This document shows positions 5,438 to 57,907 of a stretch of DNA of 64,000 nucleotides, one piece after another (within the stretch, counting starts at the first letter, position 1; every line of letters starts with the position of its first letter). Origin of the DNA: a candidate division CPR3 bacterium GWF2_35_18 (GTDB lineage: Bacteria > Patescibacteriota > CPR3 > GWF2-35-18); the NCBI GenBank assembly GCA_001771135.1, contig MESW01000003.1:235786-299785 (forward strand), written 5' to 3'. Position numbers and translations under genes: made by a program. Under the pieces are notes generated by a model that saw only the letters and a program-made list of their open reading frames with translations, did no database searches and was not told where the DNA came from.

Positions 5438-6673
5438 ATGAAAATTGCAATTATTATCTGGAAACTAGATATTAGTGGTGGTGGACAAAGACAGGCTCTT
5501 GAGCTTGCATATAATTTACAGAAAAAAAGTCATCAGGTTGATGTTTTTTGTTGTTATCTCAACAAAGAAAAATGCTACCCAAATATTATTAACAAATTAA
5601 ACGTATACGTAATCTCTTCAGAAGATTTAGAACGAACTCTCAAAAAAAAGTTATCCTTCTCTAAAAAAATCATATCAAAAATCAAAAACTATTCCCTTGA
5701 TGCAGAAAACATTTTACTAGTAAACCTTATCCAAAAAAGAAATAAAACTGTCAAATACGATGTTTTCAATTACCATGATAGTAAAGTCTTTATGATCGCT
5801 CCTTTCTTTGAGAAAGAGAAAAACTTTTGGATGATGAATGACTTACCTTCTATTCTGGACATAAAACAACGAAATAATTTGTTTAGAAAAACCGGACACG
5901 GGATTAAAAGTATCTTTAAAAAAATCGTTTTAGTTAACAAGTTTATTAATACTGAAATAAATTTGAATTTGTACGTTCGTTACATTGGGAAAGTCATGGT
6001 TCTTGACGAAAGAAATAAAAATCTTGCCAAAAGATATTTTTTTAAAAATTCTACAGTTATTCGGAGCGGAATCGATATTGAGAAATTCAAAGTATCCAAA
6101 AAACAGTACAATCTAGATAATAAAATAAATTTATTATCTACAAGTATCTTTTTCCCTCATCGAAGATACGAAGACACTATCGAAGCTCTGAATATCCTGA
6201 TCAACAATCATAAAATAACCAATTTACACTTTAATATTGTAGGTGAATCAAAAACTGATCCTGAATATTATTCATATATACAATCTTTAGTTCAAAAATA
6301 CTCTTTAAAAAAAGATATCAGTTTTCTTGGTTCAGTTTCAGATGAAAAGCTTGCTCAACTATATAAAAACTCTGATATTTTTATTTTTCCCAACACAAAC
6401 CAAACCTGGGGATTGGCAGTCTTTGAAGCTATGTTATCAGGTTGCGTAGCGATTGTGTCAAATGGATGCGGTGCTCATGAAGTATTAACTAATAAACAAA
6501 ACGCAATTATCGTGAAAGAAAAATCATCTAATGAAATAGCTATAGCCATAAAACATTTAATAACAAACAAAAAGGAAATGGAAAAAATCGGTGAAAACGG
6601 GCAAAGTTTTGTAAAGGATAATTTATCTTGGGATAAATATACAGATGAAATGTTGAAAATTTTTAGAAGCTAA
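5438..6673 (+). CDS. Glycosyltransferase family 4
   Basis: GLAVFEAMLSGCVAIVSNGCGAHEVL motif. The start abuts the stop of the upstream gene. Confidence 0.8.
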   Translation: MKIAIIIWKLDISGGGQRQALELAYNLQKKSHQVDVFCCYLNKEKCYPNIINKLNVYVISSEDLERTLKKKLSFSKKIISKIKNYSLDAENILLVNLIQKRNKTVKYDVFNYHDSKVFMIAPFFEKEKNFWMMNDLPSILDIKQRNNLFRKTGHGIKSIFKKIVLVNKFINTEINLNLYVRYIGKVMVLDERNKNLAKRYFFKNSTVIRSGIDIEKFKVSKKQYNLDNKINLLSTSIFFPHRRYEDTIEALNILINNHKITNLHFNIVGESKTDPEYYSYIQSLVQKYSLKKDISFLGSVSDEKLAQLYKNSDIFIFPNTNQTWGLAVFEAMLSGCVAIVSNGCGAHEVLTNKQNAIIVKEKSSNEIAIAIKHLITNKKEMEKIGENGQSFVKDNLSWDKYTDEMLKIFRS

Positions 6674-25495: not shown

Positions 25496-25585
25496 AATTC
25501 ATAACAGTATAATACTATATTTATGAAATTACTGGAAGGAATAAGACTATTATGAGGCATTTAGCCTTATTCCTTCCATTTTTAG

Positions 25586-27317: not shown

Positions 27318-27437
27318 GTAATTTACTTTATGTTATACCGAAAAATATACTCAACATTATAAATTTGCATAAAAGAGAAGTTGAGTATAAATCGAATTGA
27401 AAATATCCTATTATAAATTGGAAAATTCAGAATTTAG

Positions 27438-27780: not shown

Positions 27781-28443
27781 ATGAAAGAAAAACTGAATCT
27801 CAAAACACTAGGTTTGATCTTTGTAGGAATATTAGTTCTAATGTCTATTGGTTATTGTGGAGGATATCTCTACACAAAATATAAAGGTAAAGCAGATAAT
27901 ATAATATCTGATAAGAATCAAGGGACTGTTGAAATAACTAAAAAGGATAATTCAAACCTAAGTATATTCAATAATACCTACTATAACTATAATTTTGAGT
28001 TTCCCAGTGACTGGATTCACAATACCACAACTTCAGAGTATGAAGATGATCCGATTACCTCAAATCAGGTCACAGACATGCATACCTCAAACGGTGAATT
28101 TGTCCAAGTTATGACCTGGAATAACGATCAAGAGGATCTTTCTCTTCTTGAGTGGTATGAGAAATATGATACTACCCATACCATTCTAGATAATCCCCCT
28201 ACAAATACTAATGCTGAGATTGCTGGTTTGAATACAATATTTCTTTACCGTCCTACCTTACAAGCTCCGGCGGATATTACCGTTATCTTCGATAAAGATG
28301 GAACCATCTTCAGACTTTGGTATGTCGCCAACGAAAGCGGAGTTGACTACGAAGACTTCCTACATCTTCTACAAACTTTCGAATTCAATGGTCAGGTAAC
28401 CTCTGATCAAATACCGGAGGTAACAAGAGAAAGCTTAAAATAA
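27781..28443 (+). CDS. Membrane-anchored/secreted protein. Its C-terminal 150-aa domain is duplicated at the N-terminus of 30063-32402.
   Basis: Signal anchor MKEKLNLKTLGLIFVGILVLMSIGY. The domain YNYNFEFPSDWIHNTTTSEYEDDPITSNQVTDMHT...LQTFEFNGQVTSDQIPEVT is about 85 percent identical to the paralog. Confidence 0.6.
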   Translation: MKEKLNLKTLGLIFVGILVLMSIGYCGGYLYTKYKGKADNIISDKNQGTVEITKKDNSNLSIFNNTYYNYNFEFPSDWIHNTTTSEYEDDPITSNQVTDMHTSNGEFVQVMTWNNDQEDLSLLEWYEKYDTTHTILDNPPTNTNAEIAGLNTIFLYRPTLQAPADITVIFDKDGTIFRLWYVANESGVDYEDFLHLLQTFEFNGQVTSDQIPEVTRESLK

Positions 28444-28468: not shown

Positions 28469-28656
28469 AATTAAATCGTTCGGTGAGAAGTTAGAGAATA
28501 GAAAAAGTATTCTACTTTCTGCTTCTCACCGAAAAAATACGGAGAGATACAATCCATTCCCTTTTTAGTTGACCCCTTAAAAGGTCAGGAGAGAAACTCG
28601 ATGAAGACCCGACAACTGAAATTTCAGCATAAACAAAAGATTTCATATATTTTTTG
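28469..28656 (+). repeat. Conserved approximately 145-bp promoter/leader cassette, copy 1. It has an 11-bp-stem hairpin, a leader, an AGGAGAGA RBS and an ATG, followed by a 21-aa remnant ORF MKTRQLKFQHKQKISYIFCLF.
   Basis: Aligns with 29939-30085. The hairpin is TCGGTGAGAAG...CTTCTCACCGA. Downstream identity is high through ATG plus about 20 nt. Confidence 0.6.
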
Positions 28657-28702: not shown

Positions 28703-29851
28703 ATGAAAGAAAAAATTAACGTCAAAATACTAGGTTCAATTCTCGTCGGAATATTAATCGTTGTTGGAATTAGTTATGGTGGATATAAGTTGTTGAATAA
28801 AGAAAAAGCTAATGAAAATATTAATCAGTCAATTAAAAATGCAGAAATTGCTTTTAGGAGAAATGGAAATGTTTATATTTTAAATGACGGACAAGAAATT
28901 CAATTAACTACTGATGGGAAATGTCTAGTATCATTTACTGAAGATAAAATTAATAATTTTATCAATCCAATTTATGATTACCCTTGTTACAAAATATTAG
29001 ATTCATCAAACCAAAATCTAATCTTACTAAAATATTATAAGTACCCAAAATATCAAGAACAACTATTAGTCTACAGTTTAGATACTCAATCTTTTCATTA
29101 CTTTAATAATAACCCTGATTTTGAAACACCTATTGCTTGGAATACTCAAAAAGATAAATTTGTTTTTAAATCAGAATATAATATCATTAAAGTGGATACA
29201 AATGATTTTTCTGAAGAGAAATTACTTACATATGAACCAATAGTTGGTTGCGGAGGGATGACGAATAGTGAATACGGATTTATATATGATGAAGAGGTTG
29301 GTACTTTCAGAATGACTGGAGGAGAAACTTTAATTTGGGATGAAGATAATAATATAATTGTAACAAATACGAATTGTGATTATTCTGGCATTAAATCTTT
29401 CTATTACCAACAAAATACAAATATTGATTGGCCATATAATCTTGTAAGAGCTAAATCTTCAAATAATAGTTTAAAAGTCGCAATATTTGATGATAAAAAA
29501 TTAGATATATATAACCTTGAGGCACAGATTATTAAGTCATATAAATCTCCTGTGATAGGTAAATTACCACTTTGGACAAATTACGATAGTATAGTTTTCG
29601 TTTCTGATAAAGATATCTGGCAATTTGATATTATTACAGGAGAATTTTTAAAGTTATATTCATTACAAAACGGCTTTCCTGTAAAGCTATCTGTCAAAAA
29701 TAATATCCTCTATTTTTCTATACTTCGTGAATATCAAAACATTACCCAAGTGGATATAGGCTCATTAAGAGAAATATCTAAACTTAATTTGGAAACCAAG
29801 CAATCTATAAAAATTTTAGATAATGCTGATTCTCCAACTGTAATAAAGTGA
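28703..29851 (+). CDS. Membrane-anchored/secreted hypothetical protein (382 aa)
   Basis: Signal anchor MKEKINVKILGSILVGILIVVGISY. Shares the 5' cassette (27748-27800 versus 28668-28725) with gene 27781. Confidence 0.6.
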   Translation: MKEKINVKILGSILVGILIVVGISYGGYKLLNKEKANENINQSIKNAEIAFRRNGNVYILNDGQEIQLTTDGKCLVSFTEDKINNFINPIYDYPCYKILDSSNQNLILLKYYKYPKYQEQLLVYSLDTQSFHYFNNNPDFETPIAWNTQKDKFVFKSEYNIIKVDTNDFSEEKLLTYEPIVGCGGMTNSEYGFIYDEEVGTFRMTGGETLIWDEDNNIIVTNTNCDYSGIKSFYYQQNTNIDWPYNLVRAKSSNNSLKVAIFDDKKLDIYNLEAQIIKSYKSPVIGKLPLWTNYDSIVFVSDKDIWQFDIITGEFLKLYSLQNGFPVKLSVKNNILYFSILREYQNITQVDIGSLREISKLNLETKQSIKILDNADSPTVIK

Positions 29852-29938: not shown

Positions 29939-30085
29939 ATTCGGTGAGAAAACAGAGGTCAGAACAGAAGTTTCTAACTTCTTCTTCTCACCGAAAAATA
30001 CGGAGAGATACAAAACCCATCCTTTGTTAGTTGACCCTTTAAAAGATCAGGAGAGAGTCTCGATGAGTACCAAACAACTGAATAC
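29939..30085 (+). repeat. Conserved promoter/leader cassette, copy 2, driving the CHAP-domain protein gene
   Basis: The TCGGTGAGAA...TTCTCACCGA hairpin has a different inner loop that keeps its own inner stem. The leader is near-identical through CAGGAGAGAGTCTCGATG. Confidence 0.6.
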
Positions 30086-32402
30086 TGTGTCCACAGGAAG
30101 GCGATACTTTTATCTCGCCCTGGTAGTAACTCTACTTACCAGCGTGATTGGAGCCACTACTACTCAGCCGGTCAAAGCAAATGAAGGAGAACCACCGTCA
30201 AATTACCAAGTCTTTCTGCCTCTGATTCAAAAAGAAACCACAGAAAGTAAATGGCAGCTTTTTCAAAACTCGGAGTATCAATATACCTTTGAATTTCCCA
30301 GTGACTGGATCTACAACACCACAACCTCAGAGTATGAAGATGATCCGATTACCTCAAATCAAGTCACGGACATGCACACCCCAAATGGCGAGTTTGTCCA
30401 AGTTATGACATGGAATAACGATCAGGAAAACCTATCTCTGCTCGAATGGTATGAAAAGTATGATTCTTTTCATACCTCTCTGGATAATCCACCAGCAAAT
30501 CTCAACGCACAAATTGCAGGCTTGGATAGTATATACTTTAATCGTCTTACACTCCAAGCCCCGGCGGATATTACCGCGATCTTTAATAAAGACGGTGCTA
30601 TCTTCAGAATCTGGTATGTGGCTAATGAAGATGGAATTGACTATGAAAACTTTCTGCACCTTCTGCAAACCTTCGAATTTGATGGCCAAACAACCTCCGA
30701 TCAAATTCCAGATGTAACGCCAGACATTTTGGTCAAAGAAGTTTCGCCAAACGCTATCGAAGCCAATACCTGTAATAACAGAACCGATCCCAACGGTAAT
30801 CCATATGCATGTTTATGTAGCGGAGCCTATGGTAACTGCACCTGGTGGGCAAACTATATGCGACCTGACCTCCAAAGTATTAATTTTGGTGATGCTAAAG
30901 ATTGGAATGATGTAGTTTTAAATCATTCAAAACTAAAATACCTCCTTCCAGTCAATGGTACTCCAGAACTTGGCGCCATTGCCGTTTTTGAAGCTTATTA
31001 CCCCTGGGGAGGAATTGGAAACTTAGGACACGTTGCTTATGTCACTGGACACAACTCCCAAGACAACACGATAAGTATCTCTCAGATGTCTTGCGGCACC
31101 AACGGTATCCAGGTATATAACAATATCCCTATTGTTTCCGGACAAATCAGCTTCATTCACGGTTCCCCCACAATCTTTGAACACTCAAATTTTCAAGGAG
31201 ATTGGAGTCGTTTTACAGTTGATCTCCTTAATTACTGGGGTGAAAGATACATGTACTCTGAAGATGGCAACTATGCTTACCTCAATGACAGCGCTTCTTC
31301 AGTATGGATACCTCCAGATTACAGTGTCAGTCTTTTCAAAAATAACAACTGGCAATGCCCAGCAAATACCGGGTACCTTGATAACGGAGATCTATATGGT
31401 AGTGATGGTTACCCAGTTCTGGATACCCGATGGAGTAATTTCACATCACTAATGTTTTCTGATAATACCTCCATGAATGATGCTGTCTCTGGACATCAGA
31501 TTGGACACTTTGTCTGCCTTTCGCCTGGTTGCGGCTCCCTTCAGTCTTTCAATTCGGAATACAATAACGAACATACAAGTCCAGACACAATCTATGGAAT
31601 GTGCAGTGGAGCAACACCACCTCACCTCTATCAAGCGTCAGATCTGGTTGTGCTAAATAACCCTGCTCCCGCAGGTATAGATAATACCTTTACCTTCAGT
31701 ATCTACAATGCTGGTGATCTGACATTCAACATGTCTGAAATCTTTGTCTCTGGACACCTTTATGACGGCGGAGCATGGAAAGCCTGGGCGACTGTCCAAA
31801 ACATTGGACCTGGACAAATAAAGACCTTTATCGCTTCTGCCCCAATGTGGGGAGACAAAATCGGATCCTGGTACATCGATGGGATTGTTTACAAATCTAC
31901 ATCCGGTAATTTCTATAATTTACCTGGAAATGGATTCCTGCAAACTCAAAGCTTCACTGTTTCTAATACCGGAGTTTGGCTGTTTCAAGGGCTTCGATAT
32001 GAAGGAATTGGAGAACGATTTTCAAGTAACGATCCCAATCTTTCTAACAATCGTATCGACAACGATACGACAACATCAATTAAAATCTACACCGGGTGGT
32101 ATACCGTTGTCTGTAAAAATCAAAGTTATGGAGGGAGATGCGAATTTTTTGCTTCCTCAGATAATGATCTGAGAAATAACATCGTTGGGAGTAACACGAT
32201 TTCTTCAATCGTGGTATTAAAAAACTGGATGTTTATCAAAGGATCAACTGCGACAATTTACATCATTGAAAACGGTCAAAAAAAAGGTATTCCTTCCTGG
32301 AAAGAATATCTCTGTCTCGGAGGTCAACCCGGAGGTTATATCACTCTACTTGATACAATAGTGTCTCTTATTCCAACTGGACAGGTAAAACACTGTCCGT
32401 GA
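30063..32402 (+). CDS. Secreted/anchored protein with a duplicated N-terminal domain, a CHAP (cysteine/histidine-dependent amidohydrolase/peptidase) domain and a beta-rich C-terminal region
   Basis: Start revised to the ATG at 30063, which has an AGGAGAGAG RBS. The ORF-track start is an upstream TTG. Signal anchor YFYLALVVTLLTSVIGA. CHAP Cys in GNCTWWANY and His in LGHVAYVTGHN. Confidence 0.7.
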   Translation: MSTKQLNTVSTGRRYFYLALVVTLLTSVIGATTTQPVKANEGEPPSNYQVFLPLIQKETTESKWQLFQNSEYQYTFEFPSDWIYNTTTSEYEDDPITSNQVTDMHTPNGEFVQVMTWNNDQENLSLLEWYEKYDSFHTSLDNPPANLNAQIAGLDSIYFNRLTLQAPADITAIFNKDGAIFRIWYVANEDGIDYENFLHLLQTFEFDGQTTSDQIPDVTPDILVKEVSPNAIEANTCNNRTDPNGNPYACLCSGAYGNCTWWANYMRPDLQSINFGDAKDWNDVVLNHSKLKYLLPVNGTPELGAIAVFEAYYPWGGIGNLGHVAYVTGHNSQDNTISISQMSCGTNGIQVYNNIPIVSGQISFIHGSPTIFEHSNFQGDWSRFTVDLLNYWGERYMYSEDGNYAYLNDSASSVWIPPDYSVSLFKNNNWQCPANTGYLDNGDLYGSDGYPVLDTRWSNFTSLMFSDNTSMNDAVSGHQIGHFVCLSPGCGSLQSFNSEYNNEHTSPDTIYGMCSGATPPHLYQASDLVVLNNPAPAGIDNTFTFSIYNAGDLTFNMSEIFVSGHLYDGGAWKAWATVQNIGPGQIKTFIASAPMWGDKIGSWYIDGIVYKSTSGNFYNLPGNGFLQTQSFTVSNTGVWLFQGLRYEGIGERFSSNDPNLSNNRIDNDTTTSIKIYTGWYTVVCKNQSYGGRCEFFASSDNDLRNNIVGSNTISSIVVLKNWMFIKGSTATIYIIENGQKKGIPSWKEYLCLGGQPGGYITLLDTIVSLIPTGQVKHCP

Positions 32403-32418
32403 AAGGAGAATCACAGAT

Positions 32419-32504
32419 CAGGCTGGGGACAACGGCGATTCCGTTGTACCACAATGACAATCAAGCTTGCTTTCTTTAAAAGCTTTGCTCGTTGTCCCCA
32501 GCCT
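32419..32504. repeat. Palindromic element, copy 1 (GGCTGGGGACAACGG...CCGTTGTCCCCAGCC, 14-bp arms with an inner hairpin)
   Basis: Lies in a convergent intergenic region. The second copy is at 32674-32737. Confidence 0.55.
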
Positions 32505-32673
32505 GTACTTTCTTTGTCTTTCCTCTCCATAAAAATGACAAAGAAAAAAGTATCGTAGATTCAAAATCTACCCGATGAGTCCTCTTTCGCAAAAATTACG
32601 AAGGACGAAATACTTTTGAATTAGTACCAAAAATTGTATAGATTAATAATAAAGTTGTTTTAGGAAAGATTGA

Positions 32674-32737
32674 CAGGCTAGGGACAACGGCTTACCCCGT
32701 TGTACCACCAATGAAGCTTTGCTCGTTGTCCCTAGTC
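32674..32737. repeat. Palindromic element, copy 2 (GGCTAGGGACAACGG...CGTTGTCCCTAGTC). Has compensatory arm changes and an approximately 24-bp internal deletion.
   Basis: G to A in the left arm is matched by C to T in the right arm, which preserves pairing. Confidence 0.55.
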
Positions 32738-32771
32738 TATCTCTTTTCTAAACTAAATTATACTAAATATC

Positions 32772-33335
32772 TCAAAAAAAGCTACTCAAGTCAAAACTCG
32801 GACAATAACAGTCATAATAGATTAAAGCAAAAATTATTAATAAAAGCAATATTCCAATTCCCAAAATCATCGGCCAAAGAGGTTTTTTATATCTTAGATC
32901 TTCTTTCTTTTTTCCTTTTGTAAAGTTCGTTCTAATATTAATCAAATTCAAAATACCAATTCCCAATAACCCTCCCAATATATCAAATCCCATATCGGAA
33001 AACTTCCCAGTACGTGTCGGCACATACATTTGATGAAGTTCATCTGTAACTGCGTATAAAACTGTCAGGACAAAAGAAAGAATAATCGTTGGAAAACGTT
33101 CTTTAAAATTCTGACGCCATTTTTCTAAGACAATTGCACGATAAATCAAAAACCACAATAAACCGTATTCAAAAAGATGTACAAATTTTCGCCGAAAAAA
33201 CTCTGCCTCCGTATCGTCAATTTTCAAATTCGGAATTGAAGACAACCAAAATATTAAGACCATAAAAACAATGGGAGGAAGGTAATAATAAATAAAAATT
33301 TTGAGCTTTGACATAATATATATTATACAAATCAA
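32772..33335 (-). CDS. VanZ-like family membrane protein
   Basis: TDELHQMYVPTRTGKFSDMGFDILGGLLG resembles the VanZ-like (PF04892) core. Multi-TM. Confidence 0.65.
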   Translation of the reverse strand: MICIIYIMSKLKIFIYYYLPPIVFMVLIFWLSSIPNLKIDDTEAEFFRRKFVHLFEYGLLWFLIYRAIVLEKWRQNFKERFPTIILSFVLTVLYAVTDELHQMYVPTRTGKFSDMGFDILGGLLGIGILNLINIRTNFTKGKKKEDLRYKKPLWPMILGIGILLLLIIFALIYYDCYCPSFDLSSFF

Positions 33336-38929: not shown

Positions 38930-39139
38930 AATAGCAGTTATTTATAAAATACCACAGACTTCCGTCTATGATATTTTGTAATTTTCGCTTTGTGAGTGAT
39001 TTTGGCTTATTTCCATAAGTTTATATTTATGGTTTAGGCTCAAATTATAAAAAGCAATTTCTCCTCCTTCCAGGATAGCAAAAGATACAATAAAGTCAAA
39101 TCTAAAAAATTAACTACTCCTAAAGATCATCTTATTGAT

Positions 39140-43780: not shown

Positions 43781-44681
43781 AAGAAAGCAACAATCTCTAG
43801 GGGTAACAGCGATCTTAATTTCCACCATTTTTTATGGACTTATGGGTGTTTATTCAAAAATTATCGGAGTTAACTTTGGTATATTTACTCAAAGTTATAT
43901 TCGTAATCTAATTGTATTTTTAATCATTTTCGTTTTATGTTTGGTTCTGCGTAAAAAGTGGGTAAAAATTCAGAAGCAAGATATCCCTTGGATTATTCTC
44001 TGGTCTATAAGCGGAACGATTGCATCAGTTTGTTTCTTTGTTGCTGTAAATTATTTATCAATTGGAACCACCGTTATTATTTTTTTTGCTGGGAGTAACA
44101 TCTCTGGATATTTAGCTGGAAAGGTTCTCTATCAAGAACAACTGACAAAAAGTAAGATTATCGCTTCAATTTTATCGATTCTCGGAGTTCTATTAGTTTA
44201 TTATTCTACAATCGGTCTAGATAATCTCGTTTTTTCAATTATGGCTTTATTCTCTGGACTTGGAACTGGGTTATGGAATACGGTGAGTAAAAAATTTTCC
44301 CACCATTATTCAGGTTTGCAAATTACGGGAATGGATGCTTTTGCCTCTTTCTTAATGACGCTGTTTGCTTCAATGATTGTCTTCGAACCGTTGCCGACAA
44401 TCTCTTTTACCATCCCGATGCTATTTGTATTCATCTACTCAATTACTCAAACGATCACCGTGTTCTTCACCGTTTACGGATTTAAAAGATTAGAAGCTCA
44501 AATTGGGACATTAGTGATGCCCATGGAAGTATTTTTTGCAGCTTTGTTCGGATTTATATTCTACAGAGAAACGTTGACCATTTTAACAATTTTGGGTGGA
44601 TTATTAATAATTAGCGGAATTGTGATTCCGAATTTACGATTTGCAAAAAAAATATCGATTGTAAATCAAGTCAAAAACTAA
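43770..44681 (+). CDS. EamA/DMT-family transporter (10 TM)
   Basis: Two EamA-like five-TM halves. Confidence 0.75.
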   Translation: MQSKRKQQSLGVTAILISTIFYGLMGVYSKIIGVNFGIFTQSYIRNLIVFLIIFVLCLVLRKKWVKIQKQDIPWIILWSISGTIASVCFFVAVNYLSIGTTVIIFFAGSNISGYLAGKVLYQEQLTKSKIIASILSILGVLLVYYSTIGLDNLVFSIMALFSGLGTGLWNTVSKKFSHHYSGLQITGMDAFASFLMTLFASMIVFEPLPTISFTIPMLFVFIYSITQTITVFFTVYGFKRLEAQIGTLVMPMEVFFAALFGFIFYRETLTILTILGGLLIISGIVIPNLRFAKKISIVNQVKN

Positions 44682-47551: not shown

Positions 47552-47890
47552 AACTAACTCCTCTGCTTATCTGTTCAAATCCAAATTAATTCCTAAATAA
47601 TAATACACGGAAATATTTGAGTTTAAAACATCTTCTATGTTAAACTAATACAAATTCTATTAACCAAGGTTTACATTATATACTTAACTTCGTAGAATTG
47701 GCAATAATTGTAGTTGAGTATAAACCGAATTAACAACATTTATGTATCAAATTGGAATAATTCGGTTATAAAATAATAAAACTCTCTTTAGAAATTATGT
47801 TTGATAAGATAATAACAAAAACCGGAAACAATATCTCTAATTCAAAGATACAAATATTAATTATATTTAATTATAAATTTTTAGTCTAAA

Positions 47891-47981: not shown

Positions 47982-48704
47982 ATGAACGAAAAACCAATTT
48001 ACAAGAGAATTTTGTTAAAATTATCCGGAGAAGCACTCCTTGGAAAAAGAGAATTTGGAATCGATCCTGATGTTATCAACTATCTCGCTCATGAAATTAA
48101 AGAGGTCATGGATCTTGGTGTTCAAATCGGAATAGTTATGGGTGGAGGCAATATCTTCCGTGGTTCCATTGCTGAAAGAGAAGGTGGAATGGATCGAGTA
48201 ATGGCTGATTATGCAGGAATGCTAGCAACGGTAATAAATGGTATTGTCCTTGAAGAAGCTCTAAAAAAACACAATATTGCGGTACGACTAATGTCAGCTC
48301 TTTCTATGAATGAAGTTGCGGAACCGTATATCCAAAAAAGAGCACTGCGACATCTACACAAAGGCCGTGTCGTAATATTTTCCGGAGGAACCGGTAATCC
48401 ATTTTTTACCACTGATTCCGGAGCCGCACTTCGAGCTTCAGAAATCCAAGCTGATGCCCTTCTTAAAGCCACAAAAGTCGATGGTGTTTATGATAGTGAT
48501 CCCATGAAAAATAAAAAGGCGAAAAAATTCCAGAGTCTTACATACATGAACGCCTTAAAAAAAGATCTCAAAGTAATGGATGCTACAGCTTTTGCTCTCT
48601 GTATGGATCAAAAAATTCCAATAATTGTTTTTGATCTAAATGCCAGTGGAAATGTCAAAAAGGTAGTCTTAGGAGAAAAAGTCGGAACCATCGTCGGAGA
48701 TTAA
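47982..48704 (+). CDS. pyrH: UMP kinase
   Basis: [10 protein letters not shown]...[12 protein letters not shown], classic PyrH. Confidence 0.95.
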
Positions 48705-52394: not shown

Positions 52395-52448
52395 TAAAAA
52401 AATCCGTCCCTAAAAACGAAATATTAATTCGTTGCTAAGGACGGATTT
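52393..52448 (-). terminator. Rho-independent terminator (10-bp stem AAATCCGTCC/GGACGGATTT with a nested inner hairpin), followed on the minus strand by TTTTTTT
   Basis: Read from the sequence. Lies downstream of the minus-strand genes 52637-53729 and immediately before the serB-like RBS. Confidence 0.6.
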
Positions 52449-52636
52449 TATCCGTGGTGCCACCTTTATTTGACTCATTTCTAAGCTGTAACGGGCTAAA
52501 CCCGAAGAAACTTATTCATAATTTCTATGTTTTCGTTTCTCAACGTTCCCAATTTATGGATTCTCTGATGGAAGGTCAAAGTAATGACGTTTTTATAAAT
52601 ATTTTTCTATTTTATCACAAAAGAAAATAAAAGGAA

Positions 52637-56135: not shown

Positions 56136-56589
56136 AGTAAGTTGTCAGTAATTAGTAATCGGTGTCTTATAAAAAAACCCGAAAACCAATACTTAACCTC
56201 CACTAAAATCTTTATTGATAACTGTTTCCTATCATACCAAAAGCTTGATCCAAAAACCAGAGCAAAATATTTACAATTTATTTTCTAGTTTTTGTAATTG
56301 TCGGACAAAAAACAAAAAGTTCTTGACGGCAATATACCCTGTAGATTATTATACCTATAGTTGATCTATTTTAGATCAACTTTTTCATTGCACATCAAAA
56401 GCTGCTTATCCCCAAAAAGCAATCTGGAAGAAGATTTCTATTGAGACTAATTGAATAAAATTTGACTGTCATTTTGACTGAAACTGAGAGATTAATTATC
56501 TGTTAATTTTTCTGTTCCGTCAAAATGACCTTAAAAAAGGCATTTTCAATTTTTGCTTACTAGTGAGTTTTTATACTCGAAAGGAGAAT

Positions 56590-57700
56590 TCTGTTGAAAG
56601 GAGGTGAGGCTGGCTATGAACGCCAATAATACCGTGTGATACTACCTGGCGCCCGCCCCTAGAGGTCACATACCCCGATGGGGCAAATACTCCTAAAGAG
56701 GAGTTCATCTAACCTTTGGTATCGACTGCGCGATCGCGGTACGATGTAATGACCAAAGGATCTTAGTCAGCTAAGTGAGTGGACATGCGTCCTGCTTTTT
56801 CATACTGGCTGACGCCATTTTTCTTTTTGCTAAGGTCCGCGGAGACCTGGAGGCCGACAATGAGTGCACAGATCTTGTGGCTCGATATCTGTATCGGCAA
56901 GTTGTTCATGGCCCGCGTCTTCCGGGATGGTTGCACAACGGTTGAATCCGTTTCGTCTGCCCGGAGCATCTGTGGCCAAATCACCCCCGCGGACACACGA
57001 TGGTATCGCCCAACCTCACGCCCGGAGGGAATTAACCCGACTATCGCCGGGTTTGGCTAGCAGGACTATCTGTGTATCTTTGCGCAAACGCGCTCAATAG
57101 ACGCCCAGTGGGCTGAAATTGTTGCGTCCATGCGCTGCGGATTATCAATCTATTAGTAAGGAGGTGCTCTATCTTCGATACTAACAAGATTCACTCGCTC
57201 GTGTTGGATCTTTCGAAAAGAAAGTTGTGATTCAATCAACTGTGTTTAATCGGCAAAAACTGGAGATCGATCACTCGAAATGTTGAATACCAATAATGTA
57301 CACTCACACCTGTCGCCTTTGACCGCCGATGATCTGCACCTGACCGTCAACCGCCGCGCCGACTACAACCTGAGCCAGTAGCCCAACGATCAATTGCTAC
57401 TGCGAGGTTTTTCGCGAGGTTTGACTAACTCACTTACATTGACCTTGGAGAGGGATATGAGGGACTCATGTCCCTCTCCATGCATTCTCTTGGCCGACGC
57501 GCCAAGATTCAGGGGGAAACAAGGGAGAGACAATTTTTAGACGAGATGGGAATACATTTTTCTGGGGGATTTAAAGTTCTACCCGCCTACCGGTCCGCCG
57601 GAGCCACTTTTACCCACAATCCACAGATTACCAAACCCATCTCGTCTCTCCCAACTCTTTCAAAAACTAATTCCAAATCAACAATATAATATTTCTCGTG
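56590..57700. other. GC-rich approximately 1.1-kb island inside a 1.77-kb gene-free gap. It contains hairpins, a strong SD plus a 7-codon mini-ORF, and short GC3-biased ORF fragments. Candidate foreign-origin or decayed DNA, or a structured RNA.
   Basis: Base composition is visibly about 50 percent GC or more, against an approximately 33 percent background. No ORF exceeds 93 aa. Third-codon-position G/C enrichment is seen in several short frames. Confidence 0.5.
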
Positions 57701-57907
57701 TTATTTTGAGCTCTTATTTATTTATATTTTCACCATGTGGAAGAGTCTAGAAATTCACAATGAACGGAACGTCAAAAAAATGCTCTTGTTTGAGTTCGTC
57801 AAAGGCGACGAGTTAGCTTTTTAGTGGAGTGAGTTGATGAATTTCTTGACGATATAACCTAGTGATGCTTTTTGACTCCAGCTTTTGGCATCGCAAAAGA
57901 TGGAAAA

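Follow-up and report, generated by a model that had tools for sequence, protein, structure and literature searches.

Canonical hammerhead ribozymes of types I and III are known from bacterial intergenic regions, where their roles are open (PMC6155905). Among natural examples, a stem II with two base pairs at its base lies within the known variation, and no natural U4C variant is described in the same account (PMC3088659, section 8), mutations of the core usually lowering activity strongly (PMC3088659). Our literature search found no paper tying hammerheads to the candidate phyla radiation (CPR). The locus reported here lies between two convergent genes in a 64,000-nt stretch (the window) from the genome of an uncultivated CPR3 bacterium of groundwater, and it carries, bracketed by two copies of a long hairpin, a motif that resembles the type III hammerhead (Rfam RF00008, clan CL00010). 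The likeness resides in a three-helix junction open at stem III, in the sequence (H17 = C, an A15.1-U16.1 pair, GAAA and G10.1-C11.1, with the full CUGAUGA in the orthologue L021), in the bacterial intergenic place, as in the known type I and III examples (PMC6155905), and in the weak stem II base of L021, which is known in natural examples (PMC3088659). Unlike the described family, however, the window motif has C at U4 and a long stem II (28-36 nt) with internal bulges, scores far under the Rfam gathering score, and is placed outside any prophage context, between two conserved hairpin copies.

The bracketing hairpins in turn recall Rho-independent and bidirectional terminators and the REP-type hairpins that stabilise mRNA, as each is a stable G+C-rich stem-loop just after a stop codon. 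As with bidirectional terminators, a palindrome between convergent genes can serve both strands, and, as in terminators, an A/G-rich tract upstream of copy 2 pairs with a pyrimidine-rich tract downstream. In contrast to terminators, the element has no U run, encloses an interior of 34-55 nt with a conserved competing inner hairpin, and keeps its loop sequences across species; in contrast to REP elements, it is not dispersed in many copies. Its four-segment alternative pairing is like that of a transcription attenuator, but the element lies downstream of genes and not in a leader, and shows no sign of a leader peptide, a ligand pocket or a protein partner. With integron attC sites it has in common that an imperfect palindrome, 60-95 nt long, directly follows the 3' ends of genes, that its two copies have one orientation and that the adjoining genes vary, but it comes with no integrase, departs from the R/L box consensus, and is carried by only some genes of the cluster.

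The convergent gap and its two hairpin copies

The gap of about 370 nt separates a + strand gene for a secreted CHAP-domain protein from a - strand VanZ-like gene. The locus is base-for-base identical in 5 independent assemblies, the identical contigs coming from Rifle-type groundwater metagenomes, and therefore an assembly artefact is excluded. Several other convergent gene pairs of the window overlap at their 3' ends (e.g. 6670-6673, 44678-44681 and 48701-48704), and thus a 370-nt convergent gap is unusual for such a compact genome. The neighbourhood is of housekeeping character (prfB, ftsEX, an M23 peptidase, rplI, secA, serS, lysS and uppP), with a cluster of 3 paralogous secreted-protein genes of which the CHAP gene is the last, and no reverse transcriptase, integrase, recombinase, transposase or phage gene was found among the genes that were Pfam-scanned (about 17-59 kb of the window). 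The features are as follows.

30063..32402, + strand: upstream gene for a secreted protein of 779 aa, domain CHAP, a peptidoglycan hydrolase (Pfam CHAP, E = 7.7e-12; gene call on the identical contig L001)
32419..32504, + strand: hairpin element copy 1, c1 type (MFE -45.1 kcal/mol, z = -7.7; covariance model R1, 82.3 bits)
32426..32450, + strand: inner (proximal) hairpin of copy 1, GGGACAACGG-cgatt-CCGTTGTACC, 9/10 positions paired (repeat finder)
32509..32546, + strand: hairpin TTTCTTTGTC...GACAAAGAAA (repeat finder; UUUCUUU/AAAGAAA pairing kept in L021 with another loop)
32546..32617, + strand: type III hammerhead-like motif (descriptor search, MFE fold, orthologue L021:290-363)
32546-32553, + strand: stem III, 5' strand, AAAAGUAU, pairing with 32610-32617
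32554, + strand: C17, predicted cleavage between C32554 and G32555
32555-32571, + strand: stem I hairpin GUAGAUU-CAA-AAUCUAC
32572-32578, + strand: core CCGAUGA, C for U at position 4 (32573)
32579-32606, + strand: stem II, GUCC...GGAC
32607-32617, + strand: GAA, then stem III 3' strand AUACUUUU (GAAA = 32607-32610)
32618..32657, + strand: AT-rich linker from the hammerhead-like motif to copy 2, poorly conserved (window and L021 not alignable)
32658..32753, core 32674-32739, + strand: hairpin element copy 2, c2 type (z = -6.0; covariance model, 99.9 bits; full-length hairpin alignment)
32772..33260, - strand: downstream convergent gene, VanZ-like family (Pfam VanZ, E = 3.6e-14; homologues P0001-P0010)

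Copy 1 begins 17 nt beyond the stop codon of the CHAP gene (32400-32402), and copy 2 ends 19 nt short of the VanZ stop codon (32772-32774, - strand). The initial annotation, made from the letters, had described two palindromic copies with a compensatory base change, and reading of the sequence and a repeat finder agree on both. The outer arms of copy 1, which it had put at 14 bp, are present and slightly longer, at 16 bp (CAGGCTGGGGACAACG / CGTTGTCCCCAGCCTG); inside them, the inner hairpin offers the top of the 5' arm an alternative partner, and the middle segment CCGTTGTACC is accompanied by a small AAGCTT hairpin. Copy 2 is indeed the same element, with an interior shorter in the alignment by about 22 nt instead of the approximately 24 bp first estimated. 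In its arm a G to A change is offset by C to T (G:C to A:U), a further C to T makes one G.U pair, and the stem continues outward via GTTTTAGGAAAGA / TCTTTTCTAAAC to 32658-32753. The direct similarity of the two copies falls into blocks of 18 nt (94%), 12 nt (100%) and 25 nt (92%), and both have the same internal polarity, so that they are direct copies and the face-to-face arrangement suggested earlier has to be abandoned. Inverted repeats of 17 nt (94%), made up of the 3' arm of the first copy and the 5' arm of the second, enclose 166 bp.

None of 200 shuffles folded as well as copy 1 (z = -7.7) or copy 2 (z = -6.0). Both strands fold equally well, the z-scores of the whole 371 nt being similar on either strand, and the outer stem shows no clear strand bias in its G.U versus A.C cells (about 6 versus 4). 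The window has 10 matches to the core GGGACAACGG with one mismatch at most, where 0.98 would be expected. The two copies account for six of them, and the other four are isolated matches in coding sequence with no partner arm; the ten-fold over-representation is thus owed to the two copies only. Against Rfam the hairpin region gave merely spurious miRNA and lncRNA hairpin matches (E 0.2-10), and the whole 64-kb window holds no tRNA gene, no tmRNA or tRNA-like gene and no Rfam family at gathering score. A small-ORF reading was rejected, as the 70-aa ORF at 32711-32923, which starts within copy 2 antisense to VanZ, loses its ATG in L030 and L067.

Elsewhere in the window, a 1.77-kb stretch at 56136-57907 lacks any ORF above 100 aa, and its G+C content, at 0.42-0.47, exceeds the background of about 0.33. 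Strong hairpins lie at 56461-56536 and 57446-57480, and neither a tRNA nor an Rfam match, even at E <= 1, is present. The stretch may be a large structured RNA of a kind not yet described, or a gene in decay.

The three secreted-protein genes (27781-28443, 28703-29851 and 30063-32402) are consecutive on one strand and share upstream sequence and N-terminal regions, 27982-28281 and 30276-30575 being 80% identical. Their C-terminal modules (CHAP, PA14-like, H-type lectin-like) are swapped between lineages, and therefore the cluster is a fast-evolving, modular, surface-protein one. Another long hairpin (TTCGGTGAGAAG...CTTCTCACCGAA, about 22 bp) is present there in two copies, at 28479-28582 and 29940-30043. 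Each stands behind a paralogous ORF (220 aa in the first case, 382 aa in the second), shortly before the next paralogue, and has a conserved block AAAAATACGGAGAGATACAA...TTAGTTGACCC after it. These hairpins resemble a second family of gene-end hairpins, which may be coupled to a common promoter.

Hairpin copies in related lineages

Ten instances of the element, from about 7 related lineages, were reached through one metagenome match and through VanZ homologues. Their distribution is as follows.

L021/L024-27: both copies
L028: copy 2, with the contig end adjoining it
L067, L030, L060, L061: one copy
L064: one copy, of c1 type, beside other genes
L065, L068 (more distant): none; tsaE follows VanZ in the same direction

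VanZ is the conserved neighbour of the element in L024-28, L030, L060, L061 and L067, and the gene on the other side varies by lineage, encoding a CHAP, PA14-like or H-type lectin-like protein or one of 84 aa; the element sits at a synteny break adjoining VanZ. In L030, L060 and L067 the element is single and separates VanZ from a surface-protein gene that converges on it, and in L061 the orientation relative to VanZ appears inverted. A homologue search with the C-terminus of the CHAP protein returned only two proteins, one of which led to L064. In this lineage the C-terminal 200 aa and copy 1 are found together again, following another gene, of 251 aa. The homology to the window breaks off at the 3' end of the copy 1 hairpin, to within a few bases, and the rest of the region is missing. 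No copy was found in 20 kb of the more distant relative (L065 and L068 examined).

In some relatives, a 23S_rRNA_IVP / Avd-like four-helix-bundle gene, absent from the window, lies between an LTD-PKD gene and VanZ (L024:73-486, L028:622-984, L029:2520-2891). No reverse transcriptase was seen near it, and therefore a link to diversity-generating retroelements is unsupported.

The covariance analysis that the initial annotation had named as a check bears out the pairing. Over the ten instances, 96.5% of the cells of a 17-pair outer stem are paired, double changes occur at 10 pairs, and 0 of 500 shuffles were as good; when the partner columns were slid, the pairing fell to 34-44%. MAFFT/RNAalifold, as an independent and unbiased alignment, agrees with a covarying outer stem. 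The arms GGGACAACG/CGTTGTCCC are replaced by GGGTAACG/CGTTACCC in L030 and by GGGTCGAC/GTCGCCCC in L060, and the G.U pair of copy 2 becomes A-U in L028.

The pairing within the element can also be rearranged. The segments ACAACG(G), CCGTTGT, ACAATG and CGTTGT, numbered 1 to 4, pair either as 1:2 plus 3:4 or as 1:4 plus 2:3, the 1:4 pairing being far more stable than the alternative form. In a transcript that lacks the 3' arm, the inner hairpin is the MFE structure in 9/9 instances examined, and therefore the alternative pairing is a conserved property; the sequence of the inner hairpin co-varies in L030, L060 and L061, the middle segment changing in step with the arm. The early observation that the GACAACGG segment can take a proximal or a distal partner hence extends to all nine, even where the arm sequence has changed. 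The 5'-arm segment can pair with the middle segment close by before it pairs with the distal 3' arm, and this order of folding is conserved.

The identity of copy 2 reaches 97-98% in L024 and L028, compared with 89% in L067. In the two species with 97-98% identity, the VanZ protein is 61-65% identical and its third codon positions 42-60%, and the linker is unalignable. Therefore copy 2 is under selection; on these sequence comparisons, the contrast amounts to clear evidence, and a recent exchange appears less likely. Copy 1 has identical arms and an identical inner hairpin in the orthologue L021/L024, with a different interior, and the two copies are spaced, start to start, by 255 nt in the window versus 338 nt in L021.

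Of the genome-wide search for the core that had been suggested at the outset, the 64 kb were covered with a covariance model, and sequence collections were scanned as well. The model R1, built from eight instances and run without filters on the 64 kb, found only copies 1 and 2; generic hairpins came next, at <=15 bits. When 596 Gb of reference genomes (the source genome not among them) were scanned for the exact pattern, 3 chance matches turned up in high-GC organisms, and a metagenome scan (source genome not included) gave 14 unrelated high-GC matches and one true orthologous locus, the only one beyond chance. A looser pattern in viral contigs gave 29 matches, all by chance and none with the 3' arm, and blastn against plasmid and phage collections found no similarity to the region. 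The copies are not flanked by target-site duplications (ACAGAT|...|TACTTT and GATTGA|...|TCTCTT).

A different repeat of 62 nt (73% identical), which holds an inverted repeat ATATACTYAAC...GTTGAGTATA, lies at 27345-27406 and 47678-47739 in two divergent promoter regions of the window. In the orthologous locus L021 a related copy (593-637) forms an insertion next to the stop codon of VanZ, a place at which the window lacks it.

A hammerhead-like motif between the copies

On the CHAP-sense strand between the two copies, the MFE fold of 32541-32618 is a three-way junction in which stems I and II are loop-closed and stem III is open. A hammerhead descriptor written for this architecture, with position 4 left free, matches exactly this one site when both strands of the window are searched. 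The stems of the match measure 7, 5 and 8 bp, and 300 block-shuffles gave no match. The orthologue at L021:290-363 has the full CUGAUGA core and fits every position (C3 U4 G5 A6 N7 G8 A9, G12 A13 A14, A15.1-U16.1, and an H17 that is not G), and the window motif fits all core positions save position 4, which is C at 32573. U4 of the hammerhead core is normally invariant. Stem I reads GUAGAUU/AAUCUAC in the window and GUAGGCU/AGCCUAC in L021, that is, two compensatory pairs across two species only, which are also the two in which the motif was seen.

Against Rfam Hammerhead_3, the L021 sequence aligns over positions 3-52 of 54 with 17.0 bits (E = 1.1), far below the gathering score of 48.5, mainly because its stem II is long; the base of this stem has two Watson-Crick pairs only. 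The window motif gave no match to the Rfam hammerhead at E <= 10, its long stem II insertion and the U4C change being penalised. On the sequence evidence, membership of the motif in the type III hammerheads is plausible but unproven, and the window copy may be a weakened one.

The hairpin at 32509-32546 adjoins the motif, and as its 3' strand runs into the 5' strand of stem III, the two pairings can compete; the hairpin could thus compete with, or follow, the folding of the ribozyme. The further hairpins that the initial annotation had placed between the copies both exist as described; what it had missed is that, in the modelled folds, they are stem I of the hammerhead-like motif and the hairpin competing with stem III.

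Proposed gene-end function and rival readings

Based on these findings, we propose that the region is most likely a transcript 3'-end processing region and not a mobile repeat family. Both copies are stable G+C-rich stem-loops directly downstream of stop codons, and long hairpins without a U run also follow other genes of the window (25533-25578, 28479-28533, 29940-29994, about 38940-38990 and 52399-52449). Therefore, the position after stops, the place in gaps between VanZ and surface-protein genes, the movement of copy 1 with the CHAP module, and these other U-less hairpins argue for reading the element as a gene-end hairpin. Additionally, it is absent where VanZ is followed by co-directional tsaE.

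The two palindromes would be diverged copies of one lineage-specific stem-loop that marks gene 3' ends in a small CPR3 (Patescibacteria) clade. Copy 1 would travel with the 3' end of the CHAP-type surface-protein gene, and copy 2 would be the older copy, located in the convergent gap adjoining VanZ and usable from both strands. In RNA, the hairpins would form very stable 3'-end structures, acting as leaky or bidirectional terminators or as barriers to 3' exonucleases, with the putative type III hammerhead-like ribozyme on the CHAP-sense strand between them. As this motif lies downstream of copy 1 on that strand, copy 1 would have to be read through at least sometimes. If the ribozyme is active, transcripts reading through copy 1 would be cut between C32554 and G32555, giving an mRNA capped by copy 1 and the adjacent hairpin, and a downstream piece that ends at copy 2. 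In this full form, with gene-end hairpins that serve as terminator or exonuclease barrier around a ribozyme trimming read-through transcripts, the proposal is a tentative one, to which we would give somewhat less than an even chance.

The initial annotation had proposed terminators or a structured RNA. The 3'-end, terminator-like or structured-RNA class leads, given the stem-loops after stop codons, but a canonical intrinsic terminator does not fit, as no U run stands 3' of the stems. The tails UACUUUCUUUGUC (copy 1) and UCUCUUUUCU (copy 2) are pyrimidine-rich, a terminator consensus scan calls neither copy, and the tails in L064, L030 and L060 are not U-rich either. In L060 a canonical terminator stands beside the element, and therefore the element is not needed there for the termination of VanZ. 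The loops are conserved as well as the stems, which is more than a simple terminator needs. Further points against the proposal are the seemingly inverted orientation in L061, the equal folding of both strands with G.U and A.C counts that favour neither, and, for the ribozyme, the C at U4, the low Rfam scores and the presence of the motif in two species only.

Such conservation, which is near that of tRNA genes with the loops included, would also suit an independent structured non-coding RNA that covers some 335 nt of the + strand (32419-32753) and is processed by the hammerhead. Its order would be hairpin, hairpin, hammerhead, hairpin, the cleavage releasing, for example, a 5'-OH fragment about 200 nt long with copy 2 at its end, and the hairpins would be recognition or tertiary modules instead of terminators. 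All + strand helices are kept between species, variation falling in loops and linkers, the conserved four-segment pairing suggests a defined folding pathway, and the 370-nt gap is long for a compact genome. However, no promoter-like site was found upstream of copy 1, no Rfam family matches, most related lineages have a single hairpin and no hammerhead, and copy 1 recurs in L064 in another gene context with the rest of the region lacking. We therefore regard this RNA as an unlikely, minority possibility.

The evidence on gene context bears on a second alternative, in which the element acts as DNA, either as a protein-binding site or as a cruciform or hairpin recombination site bounding shuffled surface-protein modules, with a long palindrome and with ACAACG/CGTTGT occurring four times in alternation, akin in spirit to attC sites or invertible segments. 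The end of the L064 homology at the 3' end of copy 1, the neighbouring gene that differs between lineages, the synteny break adjoining VanZ, the apparently flipped orientation in L061, the missing strand bias of G.U over A.C cells, and the 17-nt inverted repeats (94%) around 166 bp are all consistent with it. On the other side, the Pfam-scanned genes of about 17-59 kb include no integrase, recombinase, transposase or reverse transcriptase, the arms misfit the attC R''/R' consensus RYYYAAC/GTTRRRY, the remaining paralogues of the cluster have another hairpin at their ends, and gene ends are natural breakpoints for any terminator, so that a DNA-level site seems decidedly improbable. Several specific candidates of this kind were rejected. 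An integron attC site disagrees with the arm bases CAGGCTG/CAGCCTG and with AAC/GTT at the stem top, and no integrase is among the neighbours; an IS200/IS605 derivative or a retron finds no transposase or reverse transcriptase there; and a diversity-generating retroelement finds neither a reverse transcriptase domain in the neighbours nor a TR/VR-like repeat at the CHAP 3' end.

The alternative pairing and the hammerhead could also be combined, such that the hairpin would be more than a terminator: a new, highly constrained bistable RNA (or RNA/DNA) module which, together with the hammerhead, would constitute a processing switch or a cassette boundary controlling how surface-protein gene modules of CPR bacteria are expressed or shuffled, and hence a ribozyme-associated element of an undescribed sort; this we consider a long shot. 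Finally, a REP/BIME-like or MITE-like mobile repeat, or an IS200/IS605 palindrome derivative, that landed twice, as the REP/MITE-like family of the initial annotation would imply, could account for two similar palindromic copies in direct orientation and for the c1-type copy in the second gene context of L064, but it is very improbable, given only two copies in 64 kb under an unfiltered covariance model, the absence of any copy from L065 and L068, scans of genomes, metagenomes and viral contigs in which the orthologous locus alone rose above chance, no similarity in plasmids and phages, no target-site duplications, no transposase (RAYT, TnpA) among 24 neighbouring proteins, and the same position across species.

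In conclusion, what is new here, as far as the sequences indicate, is a candidate ribozyme of the hammerhead type and a set of lineage-specific, terminator-like hairpins, both of known kinds. Should the hammerhead prove active, a bacterium of the candidate phyla radiation would have a type III hammerhead on its chromosome, outside a prophage and 3' of a cell-wall hydrolase gene, and this context could bear on what bacterial hammerheads do; the perfect core of L021, set against the natural U4-to-C change of the window, provides a ready-made test of the core variation that is tolerated. If the element is only a terminator-type hairpin, the finding would be an ordinary one, useful for annotation. 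The flanking hairpin shows that structured elements peculiar to a lineage exist in CPR genomes and are conserved much more strongly than neutral evolution would predict, and the element illustrates how genes may end in organisms whose terminators are uncharacterised.
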